A stretch of DNA of 64,000 bases from Escherichia coli. Lineage in GTDB: Bacteria > Pseudomonadota > Gammaproteobacteria > Enterobacterales > Enterobacteriaceae. The position numbers were made by a program, and so were the translations under genes. Every line of letters starts with the position of its first letter. Position 1 is the stretch's first letter. A model generated the notes under the pieces. It ran no database searches. It was not told the origin of the DNA and saw only the letters and a list, made by a program, of their open reading frames with translations. Location: assembly GCF_050320075.1 (NCBI RefSeq), contig NZ_CP190018.1. The stretch is one strand, 5' to 3'. Positions 51,679 through 57,057 of the stretch are shown piece after piece.

Positions 51679-52143
51679 TTATCTGAGGCATTGCTCTCGA
51701 ATGTATAGCTGTGCCCCTTCAAGTTGTTTTTGCATTATTATCAGTCGCGCTCTGAGGGTGAAATAATCCCGTTCAGCGGTGTCTGCCAATCGGGGGGAGG
51801 CTGCATTATCCACGCCGGAGGCGGTGGTGGCTTCACGCACTGACTGACAGACTGCTTTGATGTGCAACCGACGACGACCAGCGGCAACATCATCACGCAG
51901 AGCATCATTTTCAGCTTTCGCATCAGCTAACTCCTTCGTGTATTTTGCATCGAGCGCAGCAACATCACGCTGACGCATCTGCATGTCAGTAATTGCCGCG
52001 TTCGCCAGCTTCAGTTCTCTGGCATTTTTGTCGCGCTGGGCTTTGTAGGTAATGGCGTTATCACGGTAATGATTAACAGCCCATGACAGGCAGACGATGA
52101 TGCAGATAACCAGAGCGGAGATAATCGCGGTTACTCTGTTCAT
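51679..52143 (-). CDS. Rz: spanin inner-membrane subunit Rz (i-spanin)
   Basis: [60 protein letters not shown] matches lambda Rz; ATGA overlap with R stop. Confidence 0.93.
51741..51923 (-). CDS. Rz1: spanin outer-membrane lipoprotein Rz1 (o-spanin), embedded in Rz in another frame
   Basis: 60 aa, [60 protein letters not shown]: lipobox LVVVGC and proline-rich stretch as in lambda Rz1. Confidence 0.9.
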
Positions 52144-52637
52144 TGCTGACCCCACAAACAGATTTCACGCTCAATCTCACGACGAGTCATGAGACCTTTC
52201 CATTGCTTACCGCCAGCATATGTCCAGCGACGTAACTGATCACATGCGCCTTTGATATCGCCCTGGTTTATTTTGCGAAGAAGCGTCGATGTTCTGAAAT
52301 TGCCAGCACCCACGTTGTAAACGAATGAGTAAAGAGCGCCGCGCGTTGTTTCCGGTATATCGACTTTGATGTACGGGTTAATTTGTCTGGCGACAGTGGC
52401 AAGGTCTTTATTCAAGAGTGCTTTGCATTCTGCTTTGGTATACGTTTTACCGAGCATGATGTCTTTTCCTGTATGCCCGTGACATACAGTCCATACACCA
52501 ACAATATCTTTGTATGGTATGTAGCTGACACCCTCCAGACCATCGTTACCACCTGGACCAGTGATTAACACTGATGCTATAGCAATTGCTCCGCCACCAA
52601 TAGCAGCAGCAACGGCTTTTCGTAATGATGGAGGCAT
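52140..52637 (-). CDS. R: SAR endolysin (lysozyme R, phage-21/DLP12 RrrD type)
   Basis: 165 aa; N-terminal signal-anchor-release segment [28 protein letters not shown]4-lysozyme-like catalytic region. Confidence 0.93.
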
Positions 52638-52852
52638 TATTCACCTCTCGCAGCCTTGCGCTTATCTTCTTTAATCTTGAAATAAAGGTTTGTCAGGTAC
52701 GTCAGCAGGCCAAATACCAAGCTACCCAGCACACCTATTGCTGCCCACTGTGAGGGCGTGACTTTATCGAGCAGCTGTAAAAACCAGTAGCCAGCACTGC
52801 CTGCGGAGGTGCCGTAGGCAATGCCCGTTGTTAACTTATCCATGGATTTCAT
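52637..52852 (-). CDS. S: pinholin S (phage-21/DLP12 EssD type) with dual-start motif
   Basis: 71 aa, [71 protein letters not shown]; Met1 and Met4 give antiholin/holin starts. Confidence 0.92.
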
Positions 52853-53045
52853 AGCCTCACCTCCGCAAATAACGGATGGTGTACACGGTTCGGAACGAAG
52901 AGGAAAGGTATAGAAGTTACATTAGCGTAAGGCTTGAACATCTATTCAAAAAGAAAAACGCCAGCGATTATTCTGGCGTAGCTGAAAGCATCATACAATT
53001 ATCAAATACGAAAATTACAAAATCATTAAAACGCATCACGTTACA

Positions 53046-53627
53046 TCATGTCTTTTCTAAAAAAAATCTTGATGAATATTGATGGGGAGGAACACCAAAA
53101 TATCTTCTGAAAACACTTACAAAATATGACGTGTTTTCATAACCGCATATCTCAGCAACTTTTCCAACAGAATATAAATTGTAGCTTAATAACCTTTCCG
53201 CCATCACCATTCGCTCTTCAAGAATTAACTTACTAAATGATAAGCCTTCGTGCTTTAATTTTCTTTTTAACAGACTTTCACTCAGATACAGTCTTGAAGA
53301 TATATCACAAAGTCTCCATGCTGCAGATATATCCGTGTGAATAATAGCCTTAACTTTACTTCCTAAACTATTAAGACATCCAAATAAAAAACTTTGCACT
53401 ATTTTCTCTGAAGATAAGATAGCAAGACATGCAAGTGATATTTGATTTCTAACAAAATCCACAGTTCTGCCATCACAATTCAAGCATGCAATCAAGTTCT
53501 TTAACAATGAAAAATCTTCACATTCCACCATCAAGTATGCCGGATAAAACCTTCTTACAGAAAAAGGTGAGAGTGTGTTGCTTTTAAAGAAATCATTAAC
53601 TGTTTTCTCTTCAACATCTACGATCAT
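53046..53627 (-). CDS. short AraC/XylS-family transcriptional regulator (cargo between Q and S)
   Basis: 193 aa; C-terminal AraC-type HTH (VGKVAEICGYENTSYFVSVFRRYFGVPPHQY); very AT-rich gene and 500-bp AT-rich upstream region. Confidence 0.75.
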   Translation of the reverse strand: MIVDVEEKTVNDFFKSNTLSPFSVRRFYPAYLMVECEDFSLLKNLIACLNCDGRTVDFVRNQISLACLAILSSEKIVQSFLFGCLNSLGSKVKAIIHTDISAAWRLCDISSRLYLSESLLKRKLKHEGLSFSKLILEERMVMAERLLSYNLYSVGKVAEICGYENTSYFVSVFRRYFGVPPHQYSSRFFLEKT

Positions 53628-54121
53628 TGCATGATCTATATTTGATGAAAAAAATCTTTTAAATTTTAATCAATGAGAACAGCACTTCCTTTTTTAAATA
53701 AAATATCTTCTTTACCAATTCGGACATCAAACGAGTTCAACACCAAAATGATAGAACATATGTATGGCATATTATCCACCTGATATCATTGGGGTTACAC
53801 CAAGTAAGTATAGGTGGAAAATCAATATTCGCCAGTTCAACAATAAGGAAAATCTCATTGCATCACAAGTATAAAATTATGTATTTAACTCACAAAGACA
53901 AATTATTAAACCAATCTGTTATATTATATATAGCTGCGTGGAATCATAATATTATATATTTTGACTGGCATGTTTACCAACTTTAAGTTGCATCTCAATG
54001 GTTTCTTCAGCGTAAACAGAGTTTTTATACAAACTGACACTCTGGGTATCATAGTGTAGTTTTTACGATTGTAAATATCCTGCATGCAGGAACTCATCCT
54101 TTTGGATGATATCGCATACAA

Positions 54122-55081
54122 TTAATTTACCATCAGTCTTAGAGCCAGTTCGTCCGGATAGGGATCGAAGTAATTCTGTGTAAGCAAGTAATCATTAGGA
54201 TACTCACCCAGATAATGCTTCAGCAGAGTCAACGGCGCAAGAAGAGGTAATGTGCCAGAACGATAGTTAAGTATAACCTCGCTCAACTCTTTACGCTGGC
54301 GTGTACTTAAGTAGTTACTAAAATACCCCTGTATATGCATCATCACATTCGTGTGATTTTTACGTGATGCAGGTTTTCTGAGAATCGCCATCAGCTTATC
54401 ACGATACACCTCAAAGTATGATTCAAGGTCCGCCCACTCGTGTATTGCAGCCACAAATGGTCCCATATCTTTATAGCCTGCCTGACTATGCGCCAACAAC
54501 TGAAGCTTATAACGACTATGAAAAGCTAATAACTCTCTTCTTGATAATTTCTCCTTGTAAAGGTGATTGAGCTCATGCAAAGCAAAAACTCTTTCAACAA
54601 AATTCTCACGAAGCACTGGATCATGTAATCGCCCATCCTCTTCAACCGGTAGCCAGGAAAACTTTTCCATCAAAGTGCTCGTAAATAGTCCCACTCCATC
54701 TTTACGACCTCGATTACCATTTTCATCATAGACACGCACGCGCTCCATGCCACAGCTGGGAGATTTAGCACAAACCACAAACCCCGATACATCCTTTAAT
54801 TTGTCCATATAAGAACGACTAAACTCTGTCATTCTCTCTGTCACATCCTCATTCTGGTCGTGGCTGAAACACATCCGTATATTTCCTTGCGTCGAGCGCA
54901 CAAGACGTAGAGCAGGACGCGGAACTGGCAGCCCTATAGCCATTTCCGGACATACTGGTCTGAATGTTACCCATTCCACTAATTTGTCCATTAAAAAGTC
55001 AGCTCTTTTGTGACCACCATCAAAACGAACAGCAGAACCGGCCAGACAACCGCTGATTCCAATCACAGGTTTTTTTATCAT
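54122..55081 (-). CDS. DUF523 (TudS-like) / DUF1722 (YbgA-like) fusion protein
   Basis: 319 aa; N-terminus IGISGCLAGSAVRFDGGHK plus conserved Cys (CPEM, CAKSPSCGMERVRVY) resembles DUF523; C-terminal half resembles DUF1722; assignment from memory of family signatures. Confidence 0.6.
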   Translation of the reverse strand: MIKKPVIGISGCLAGSAVRFDGGHKRADFLMDKLVEWVTFRPVCPEMAIGLPVPRPALRLVRSTQGNIRMCFSHDQNEDVTERMTEFSRSYMDKLKDVSGFVVCAKSPSCGMERVRVYDENGNRGRKDGVGLFTSTLMEKFSWLPVEEDGRLHDPVLRENFVERVFALHELNHLYKEKLSRRELLAFHSRYKLQLLAHSQAGYKDMGPFVAAIHEWADLESYFEVYRDKLMAILRKPASRKNHTNVMMHIQGYFSNYLSTRQRKELSEVILNYRSGTLPLLAPLTLLKHYLGEYPNDYLLTQNYFDPYPDELALRLMVN

Positions 55082-55273
55082 ATCCTCCCCCTTGACTAAT
55101 TCATTAACACATAAACTGTGTAGTGCACGGAATAAATTGCCTTTCTGGCGTCATCACTGACAATTTTTCTGTTATGGACTATTCCTAATATAGTATGAAA
55201 GTTCTTTAAGTGATCGGTCGTAATCATCTATCTTTCATACTTACTCTCAACTATCAAAAGTACAGGATTTATT

Positions 55274-55798
55274 ATGAAGTTATGGCCTGTGTTGACTGGC
55301 ATTGCACTCTCTTTCACTCTTATAGCATGTAAGGCCCCGACACCACCTAAAGGTGTGCAGCCGATTACAAATTTTGACGCCAACCGCTACCTCGGAAAGT
55401 GGTATGAAATAGCTCGCCTCGAGAACCGGTTCGAACGTGGTCTGGAACAGGTCAGCGCTACTTATGGAAAACGGAACGACGGAGGGATTCGTGTACTTAA
55501 CCGTGGATACGATCCAACGAAAAATAAATGGAGCGAGAGCGAAGGTAAAGCATACTTTACTGGAGATACTAAAACTGCAGCGTTGAAGGTTTCGTTTTTT
55601 GGCCCCTTCTATGGTGGCTATAATGTAATCAAACTGGATGATGAGTATAAGTATGCTCTTGTCAGTGGTCCGAACAGAGAATACCTATGGATTCTGGCAA
55701 GGACCCCAACTATTCCAGATAAAGTAAAAGCAGACTATGTGCGAACCGCTCAAAAGTTGGGATTCAATGTCAATGAATTATTATGGGTTAAACAATAA
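55274..55798 (+). CDS. outer-membrane lipocalin, Blc-like lipoprotein
   Basis: 174 aa; lipobox LIAC, then NFDANRYLGKWYEIARLENRFERGLEQVSATY...KAYFTGDTKTAALKVSFFGPFYGGYNVI very similar to E. coli Blc; on the strand opposite to late genes. Confidence 0.85.
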   Translation: MKLWPVLTGIALSFTLIACKAPTPPKGVQPITNFDANRYLGKWYEIARLENRFERGLEQVSATYGKRNDGGIRVLNRGYDPTKNKWSESEGKAYFTGDTKTAALKVSFFGPFYGGYNVIKLDDEYKYALVSGPNREYLWILARTPTIPDKVKADYVRTAQKLGFNVNELLWVKQ

Positions 55799-55835
55799 AA
55801 TCCCTACCCGAAATAATACTTATTAGAATAAATAT

Positions 55836-55860
55836 CCTCCGGCATAGCCGGAGGTTTTTC
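55836..55860 (+). terminator. rho-independent terminator after the blc-like gene
   Basis: cctccggcatagccggagg followed by tttttc. Confidence 0.7.
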
Positions 55861-55869
55861 AAATGCGCC

Positions 55870-56570
55870 TATAAGGCTCTCTTACCAGCCGCGCCCTAAC
55901 AGGCGCACACGATCTGACATTTGCATCCAACTTCGTTACTTACGGCCCGTAAACGGGCTGCCCGGATAGGGAATCGATAACTGCTCTCCCATTTTATCCT
56001 CTTCAAGCTGGTGCTTTATGTAGTCCTGTATCTTCGCCGTGTTCTTACCCACCGTATCGACATAGTACCCTCGGCACCAGAACTCCCTGTTTCTGTATTT
56101 GAATTTCAAATCCCCAAACTGCTCGTAAAGCATCAGACTGCTTTTCCCTTTCAGATATCCCATAAAGCCGGATACGCTCATTTTGGGTGGGATTTCCACA
56201 AGCATATGGATATGATCTGCGCAGCACTCTGCTTCCAGAATCCGTACGCTTTTCCACTCACACAGCTTTCTCAAAATACTGCCTATCGCCCTACGCTTCT
56301 CTCCGTAAAACGCCAGTCTTCGGTATTTCGGCGCAAAAACTATGTGATATTTACAGTTCCAGCGGGTGTGCACTAAGCTCTTTTCGTCCCCCATTGGGAC
56401 CCCCTTTTGATTTCTTGTTTGACACTTGCAGTTGCCAGACCGCAAGGTGTTTTAACAAATCAAAAGGGGTTTTAATAACTGGCTCAAAGCTGAAAGCTTT
56501 CCGGAACCCCCAGCCTAGCTGGGGGTTTTCTGTGCACAAAAAAACCAGCCTTTGGGGAGGCTGGCTAAAT
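55870..56570 (-). mobile_element. IS200/IS605-family (IS200-like) insertion sequence; boundaries approximate
   Basis: HuH Y1 transposase gene flanked by subterminal hairpins (gcccgtaaacgggc at 55937-55950; cccccagcctagctggggg at 56508-56527; ccagcctttggggaggctgg at 56546-56565). Confidence 0.75.
55936..56394 (-). CDS. tnpA: IS200-family transposase TnpA (Y1 HuH)
   Basis: 152-aa product from MGDEKSLVHTRWNCKYHIVFAPKYRR with HxH motif (DHIHMLVEIPP) and catalytic Tyr region (RGYYVDTVG). Confidence 0.9.
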   Translation of the reverse strand: MGDEKSLVHTRWNCKYHIVFAPKYRRLAFYGEKRRAIGSILRKLCEWKSVRILEAECCADHIHMLVEIPPKMSVSGFMGYLKGKSSLMLYEQFGDLKFKYRNREFWCRGYYVDTVGKNTAKIQDYIKHQLEEDKMGEQLSIPYPGSPFTGRK

Positions 56571-56664: not shown

Positions 56665-57057
56665 TTATTTCGAACAATCAGCATCCATCTCCAATCGGAG
56701 ATCCAACACCATCAGCATACCCTCCACTACGCCCTCAGCTTTCTGGAGCATCCTGCCAACCCAACAATCAGATCGCCCATGCTTACGTGCAAGCGCCATA
56801 AAAGTCATGCCGCCGACATAATAGTCCACCAATAAATCATGCAAATCGCTGTTGTTCTTTTTCAGACGGGCCATGCACCCGCAAATGATCATCGCGTCAT
56901 CGTCACAACATTGTGGGCGAGATTTTACTTTTGAAGGAATTAATCCCTTAAAACCGGCGGCAATGGACGACCAGGTCACATCTTCATGATTATTAGCCGC
57001 CCACGCTCCCCAACGCTCAAGAACCATCTGAATATCACGCATCAACTTACTCCACAA
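56665..57057 (-). CDS. Q: late gene antiterminator Q (QuuD-like)
   Basis: About 125-130 aa, [62 protein letters not shown] matches DLP12 QuuD; true start probably the internal Met at 57042. Confidence 0.88.

Follow-up and report, generated by a model that had tools for sequence, protein, structure and literature searches.

Host lysis by a pinholin, a SAR endolysin, and a spanin complex is textbook material, as is the Rz/Rz1 pair common to phages lambda and 21, and the pathway is summarized in PMC6116005 and PMC6139136. The described systems closest to the locus reported here are the lysis cassette of phage 21 and the essD-rrrD-rzpD-rzoD cassette of DLP12, a cryptic prophage of Escherichia coli K-12. 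Lambda resembles the locus through Rz and Rz1, and the Qin-like prophages (UTI89, APEC O1, and YZLc1-3) have a lysis region made up of a class II holin, YdfR, the RrrQ lysozyme, and Rz.

The locus occupies positions 51679 to 52852 of the window, by which is meant the whole 64,000-nt stretch of E. coli DNA (contig NZ_CP190018.1) that was analyzed. The phage 21 cassette is matched in its four genes, in their order and overlaps, and in the lengths of S, R, and Rz1 (71, 165, and 60 amino acids), with Rz having 154 residues here and 153 in phage 21. The two cassettes are joined by a continuous 1196-nt alignment at 92.5% identity, in which R and Rz1 reach 98.8 and 98.3% amino acid identity, and the dual start of S, its GxxxSxxxG motif, the SAR segment of R, and residues E35, D44, and T50 are all conserved. 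The differences from phage 21 are found in S, which is 77% identical in nucleotides and 87% in amino acids; in the last ~36 codons of Rz, which diverge; and in the surroundings, as the window has no bor gene downstream of the cassette and neither the tRNA genes nor the nearby pR′ of phage 21 upstream of it.

The DLP12 cassette shows amino acid identities of 98.6% for S (EssD), 98.8% for R, and 96.7% for Rz1, and aligns at 94.8% nucleotide identity over 1176 nt; RefSeq relatives of the locus are annotated as essD, rrrD, and rzpD. However, the setting of the two cassettes differs. DLP12 has borD downstream and nmpC upstream, whereas here bor/iss has been replaced and the upstream morons are a lipocalin gene, a YbgA-family gene, and an AraC-like pseudogene. 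The prophage in the window also sits at the bio/ybhB site, which is that of lambda, and has complete lambda-like head and tail genes.

With lambda, the likeness covers Rz (95.5% amino acid identity, with 99.0% nucleotide identity over Rz positions 1 to 393) and Rz1 (96.7% amino acid identity). It extends to the embedded +1-frame architecture, the lipobox, and residues Cys99, Cys152, and Cys29, whereas S and R of the window show no relationship to the lambda holin S105/S107 and transglycosylase R (~21% amino acid identity). The Qin-like lysis region is identical in every nucleotide from position 52021 into the large terminase gene and represents the source type of the 3′ end of Rz in the window, whereas its holin, YdfR, RrrQ, and first ~20 Rz codons have no counterpart there. 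The first-pass annotation had assigned S and R to the phage 21/DLP12 pair and had described Rz and Rz1 as close to lambda. Both assignments agree with these identities, the former also with the Pfam matches and sequence motifs given below.

As judged from its sequence, the locus is very probably an intact and ordinary lysis cassette of the phage 21/DLP12 type within the late operon of a lambda-like prophage. This arrangement is already known and described and holds little new biology, the sole addition being the detail of a recombination tract that begins inside Rz.

Gene layout and protein features

The minus strand of 51679 to 52852 carries four tightly packed and intact open reading frames, with no truncation or frameshift. 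S (52852..52637), encoding a pinholin/antipinholin of 71 residues, has its stop codon overlapped by the ATG of R in an ATGA junction, and R (52637..52140) encodes a SAR endolysin of 165 residues (GH24 lysozyme). The end of R is overlapped in turn by the ATG of Rz (52143..51679), which encodes the inner membrane spanin subunit (i-spanin) of 154 residues. Rz1 (51923..51741), encoding the outer membrane lipoprotein spanin subunit (o-spanin) of 60 residues, is wholly embedded in Rz in the +1 frame, its start being offset from that of Rz by 220 nt, which is 1 modulo 3. All four proteins match Pfam families far above the curated cutoffs. The RefSeq annotation of identical loci (YZLc1-3, Ec-U3, and strain 144) gives rzpD and omits the embedded Rz1 gene (rzoD), although its frame is intact; the recognition of this unannotated gene in the RefSeq relatives is one use of the present check.

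S matches PF04971 (Bacteriophage P21 holin S) with an E value of 2e-35 and a score of 120.9 bits against a cutoff of 26. It begins with a dual-start motif, M1-K2-S3-M4 (MKSM), that is identical to the start of S21, and two forms are predicted from it, one of 71 residues and one of 68 residues starting at Met4. Residues 33 to 58 are the sole stretch that passes a Kyte-Doolittle value of 1.2 and constitute a strongly hydrophobic transmembrane domain (TMD), and the first segment is weakly hydrophobic (SAR-like) and rich in Gly, Ala, and Ser. The GxxxSxxxG motif is kept as G40, S44, and G48. RNA folding of the S 5′ region places a small hairpin immediately upstream of the Shine-Dalgarno sequence in the window and in phage 21 alike.

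R matches PF00959 (phage lysozyme) with an E value of 1e-45, and its full length (residues 1 to 165) matches the solved structures 3hde_A (Lysozyme) and 4zpu_A (Lysozyme RrrD) with E values of ~1e-110. It shares 163 of its 165 residues with R21, the differences being S29G and M98T, and 163 of 165 also with RrrD of DLP12. The SAR stretch at residues 8 to 27 is Gly/Ala rich (65% G, A, S, or T) and is the same as in R21, and its release from the membrane is predicted. R carries E35, D44, and T50, which we take to be the catalytic triad of R21-type endolysins.

Rz matches PF03245 (E value of 5e-53; 179 bits) and has an N-terminal TMD in the form of a hydrophobic stretch at residues 1 to 27. Rz1 matches PF06085 (E value of 5e-20) and displays a lipobox, VVGC, whose Cys20 is followed by Thr-Ser, and 10 prolines in its mature part. 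It is identical to phage 21 Rz1 at 59 of 60 residues and to lambda Rz1 at 58 of 60, with G60D among the changes from lambda. The periplasmic cysteines are Cys99 and Cys152 in Rz and Cys29 in Rz1, and these are the residues that form the intermolecular disulfides in lambda and would presumably do so here.

Rz and Rz1 of the window, phage 21, and lambda

The limits of the blastn blocks place the onset of lambda similarity at 52143 on the minus strand, which is the ATG of Rz, and lambda is unrelated upstream of this position, with amino acid identities of 22% for S and 21% for R. This abrupt onset, next to S and R genes that lack any lambda similarity, favors the account given by the first-pass annotation, namely, that module exchange has placed lambda-type Rz/Rz1 genes beside 21-type S and R in this prophage and has thereby made a new hybrid cassette. 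That account has almost no probability left, because phage 21 shows the identical break against lambda and, in a multiple alignment, carries the same bases as the window on both sides of 52143. Moreover, the alignment of the window to phage 21 is continuous. A single unbroken blastn block runs from 52883 to 51688 and spans S, R, Rz, and Rz1, DLP12 aligns from 52863 to 51688, and megablast returns a single piece each against phage 21 and phage 434. A break in the similarity to phage 21 at the R/Rz boundary was sought by blastn and alignment and was not found.

Per-gene alignments gave the same picture. Rz of the window is identical to lambda and to phage 21 at 439 of 465 nt each (94.4%), a tie, and to DLP12 at 92.3%. 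For Rz1, 179 of 183 nt (97.8%) are shared with phage 21 and 178 of 183 (97.3%) with lambda, and the value for DLP12 is 97.3%. At the six sites where the Rz genes of lambda and phage 21 disagree, the window has the lambda base at three and the phage 21 base at three. As a control, lambda was compared with phage 21 directly; S and R are unrelated (19 to 21% amino acid identity), whereas nucleotide identity reaches 98.7% for Rz and 99.5% for Rz1. An entry in a published strain table (PMC12642591) describes lambda RzRz1 as having “96% & 98% identity to phage 21 RzRz1.” An Rz/Rz1 pair in phage 21 or DLP12 clearly unlike that of lambda was looked for by alignment and was not found, and by these alignments there is no division between a distinct “21-type” and a “lambda-type” Rz/Rz1.

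Since phage 21 carries the Rz/Rz1 allele family of lambda, the lambda/21 joint at the start of Rz would have been inherited from a common ancestor of the 21-type cassettes. In all likelihood, it is an old property of the whole 21/DLP12 cassette family, with no exchange having taken place at this locus. At least 80% of the cassette is present in 2657 of 5426 complete E. coli genomes, and an arrangement found in about half of these genomes likewise argues against a new hybrid. The same coverage was reached in 47 phage records, including phage 21, phage 434, mEp332, cdtI, and wild lambda-like isolates (Lambda_ev and the PhiR series).

The locus thus falls outside a class of newly formed lambda × 21 hybrids, as its Rz/Rz1 genes are indistinguishable between the two phages and there is no break at R/Rz. 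Uniformity of the cassette was to have been recognized by Rz and Rz1 aligning better to phage 21 than to lambda. The scores tie, and the cassette is nonetheless uniformly of the 21 type. What the check provides is that an inherited family trait is kept from being tallied as a new recombination event.

Local exchange between lambda and phage 21 was ruled out as a candidate because these two phages have a common Rz/Rz1 allele, as the per-gene alignments to them and to DLP12 show.

Within the 21-type family, the S/R junction is a further mosaic boundary against phage 21. Over 52651..52852, S is 72 to 78% identical in nucleotides to the phage 21 gene and 95% identical to that of DLP12, and R is 96 to 100% identical to phage 21 from 52650 onward.

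A Qin-like tract beginning inside Rz

The 3′ end of Rz is of a different origin. Over 51679..51750 (minus strand), sliding identity and alignment to lambda, phage 21, and DLP12 fall to ~60 to 72%, and similarity to these three and to the best-matching genomes ends ~37 nt short of the Rz stop codon. Compared with lambda, the C-terminal 24 residues of Rz have seven changed positions and one inserted residue. Random drift was rejected as the cause of this divergence, given that the segment matches a distinct allele, which is found at 78% identity in PhiR12-type phages (PhiR12_1) and at 99 to 100% in the Qin-like prophages of 172 E. coli records.

This variant end belongs to a tract at 52021..48216 (minus strand) that is 100% identical, with zero mismatches, to the Qin-like prophage of strain YZLc1-3, a donor-type prophage located 1.3 Mb away from the locus in the YZLc1-3 chromosome. 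The tract contains the 3′ part of Rz, Rz1, a DUF1398 gene, a YlcI/YnfO gene, and the small terminase gene and reaches into the large terminase gene, and the protein accessions within it are identical in both prophages. To the right of the tract, the window diverges from the Qin-like prophage by ~1%. To its left, homology is lacking, with no similarity upstream of 52082 and three mismatches down to 52022. The DLP12-like prophage of strain 144 provides the other boundary, as it has one mismatch to the window from 54000 to 51790 and diverges from 51789.

The left crossover is thus placed within 52021..51790 (minus strand), an interval of 232 nt inside Rz (codons ~41 to 119) that extends across the start of Rz1. 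The breakpoint is not narrowed further within this interval because 51790..52021 is identical in both parental types. The right end of the tract falls between 49460 and 48216, within the large terminase gene. In SNP maps, Rz is correspondingly chimeric, with codons 1 to 41 of the DLP12/21 type, codons 42 to 118 common to both parents, and codons 119 to 154 of the Qin-like type. The first-pass annotation had placed a recombination joint near the R/Rz boundary. This agrees with the onset of lambda similarity at the Rz ATG, but the joint that is specific to the locus is inside Rz, and its partner is a Qin-like prophage rather than lambda.

The gene order downstream of the lysis genes in strain 144 is rzpD-iss-ylcI-terminase, and the window has DUF1398-ynfO in that place, with the DUF1398 gene (50946..51371, plus strand) at the position of iss and the YlcI/YnfO-family gene (50670..50903, plus strand) at that of ylcI. 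On this comparison, a variant Rz 3′ end, the DUF1398 gene, and ynfO came in with the tract and took the place of the former Rz 3′ end, iss/bor, and ylcI. The serum resistance gene iss, a bor homologue linked to serum survival, is lost from this prophage.

Both parental forms are frequent. The Qin-like arrangement occurs at ≥99% identity in 172 records (UTI89, APEC O1, and S88 among others), ~230 genomes carry the variant Rz 3′ junction, and the strain 144 form without the patch is also frequent, including in many RIVM isolates. Among complete genomes, only YZLc1-3 and Ec-U3 contained the chimera itself at 100% identity, and the YZLc1-3 copy of the locus equals the window apart from an ISCro1 insertion. 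Because the chimera is limited to these two genomes and both parental forms are frequent, it would be the derived form, with the Qin-like prophage as its likely donor. Which way the exchange ran and how recent it was are judged here from frequency counts rather than from phylogeny. In YZLc1-3, the donor prophage was observed to be coresident with the chimera. The tract is probably the result of gene conversion or a double crossover with a coresident Qin-like prophage, and recombination from prophage to prophage is a familiar process in E. coli strains with several lambdoid prophages.

A 3.8-kb stretch of identity might also arise as an assembly artifact between similar prophages or reflect old common ancestry of the packaging module. 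Both prophages have lambda-like structural genes that are 95 to 99% identical over >20 kb, which is a setting for repeat collapse or misjoining, and in A10 and other genomes, a prophage of another background carries 21-type S/R joined to an Rz with a similar variant end. Nevertheless, these explanations are distinctly improbable, as the chimera is present at 100% in the window and in two independently assembled complete genomes (one from a chicken in China and one from a human in Burkina Faso). In addition, zero mismatches bounded by ~1% divergence on the right and by no homology on the left are the pattern of a discrete recent patch, and the unpatched, parent-like form exists in strain 144 and the many RIVM isolates.

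The junction in A10 suggests that crossovers occur repeatedly in Rz. Building on the reading of the tract as a conversion or double crossover, the chances are about even that Rz serves as a recombination anchor between coresident lambdoid prophages and that a Qin-like patch of 2.3 to 3.8 kb generated a chimeric i-spanin whose TMD is of the DLP12/21 type and whose C terminus is of the Qin type, and removed iss/bor in the same event. If this is true and the chimera is functional, the locus would constitute a natural experiment in which the N- and C-terminal parts of a spanin are interchangeable between alleles, and virulence morons beside the lysis cassette would turn over through prophage-to-prophage conversion. 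In any case, the locus-specific recombination is now placed from the middle of Rz to the large terminase gene, with the loss of iss/bor.

Prophage context and predicted function

The prophage adjoins ybhB-bioA and resembles lambda, carrying exo-bet-gam, P-ren, and head and tail genes of the lambda type. Its nin region bears DLP12 gene names (ybcN, ninE, ybcO, rusA, ylcG, and Q). The host genes rhlE to bioA-ybhB, at positions 1 to ~24000 of the window, flank the prophage, which is thus at the bio-proximal site used by lambda.

The Q antiterminator gene (57042..56665, minus strand) is separated from S by ~3.8 kb. This interval holds an IS200 tnpA gene (56445..55936, minus strand), an antisense lipocalin gene (55274..55798, plus strand), a gene for a 319-residue YbgA/TudS-DUF1722 protein with 2-thiouracil desulfurase and DUF1722 domains (55081..54122, minus strand), and a frameshifted pseudogene of an AraC-like regulator that ends at 53046 (minus strand). 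Transfer RNA genes, which phage 21 has between Q and S, were sought in this interval and across the window, and none are present. Two putative terminator-like hairpins were retrieved on the minus strand by a consensus scan, one between Q and IS200 (56566..56543) and the other after the AraC-like pseudogene, 106 nt upstream of S (52979..52958). The scan for promoters and terminators performed no better than on shuffled sequence (18 versus 13.6 ± 4.2 and 5 versus 4.6 ± 2.1), and single sites such as these are leads.

The near identity of its proteins to those studied in phage 21 and lambda implies that the locus would lyse cells by the pinholin, SAR endolysin, and spanin pathway. Late transcription driven by Q, assumed to reach S, would allow both start codons of S to be used, one for the S71 antipinholin and the other for the S68 pinholin. 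R would be exported by Sec, and its weakly hydrophobic SAR segment would keep it tethered to the inner membrane in an inactive state. At the time of triggering, the pinholin would make small holes, of nanometer scale and too narrow for a soluble endolysin, and depolarize the membrane, whereupon the SAR segment would leave the bilayer and the lysozyme would refold and degrade the murein. The Rz/Rz1 complex, joined through the C termini of its subunits, would then disrupt the outer membrane. The recombination tract, which begins within 52021..51790 and extends into the large terminase gene, makes the Rz of this last step a chimera. Rz1 and the C-terminal part of Rz come from the same donor allele, so the interacting C termini would stay a native pair.

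The cassette could conversely be a silent relic, if the IS200/moron insert cuts off late transcription from S or if the chimeric Rz fails to pair with Rz1. Such a fate might be read from the IS200 element and ~3.8 kb of foreign genes that separate Q from S, from the two terminator-like hairpins, and from the eight substitutions or insertions in the Rz C terminus relative to lambda together with G60D in Rz1. It is nonetheless unlikely, given that none of the four frames is disrupted and every known critical residue is retained. In lambda, Q-modified polymerase reads through terminators, and lambdoid phages commonly carry morons between Q and S, an example being nmpC in DLP12. As for pairing, the 3′ part of Rz and all of Rz1 represent a single donor allele, identical to the Qin-like prophage from 52021.

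The moron cluster at 53046..56445 is also found in strains 144 and Ec-U3. In YZLc1-3, the IS200 element is split at 56124..56131 by a 2.7-kb ISCro1 element of the IS66 family, whereas it is uninterrupted in the window and in Ec-U3. Past the right end of the window, the same prophage of YZLc1-3 carries a SIR2-family gene between kil and the repressor gene (L001, 2779..4380), which could be a defense moron.
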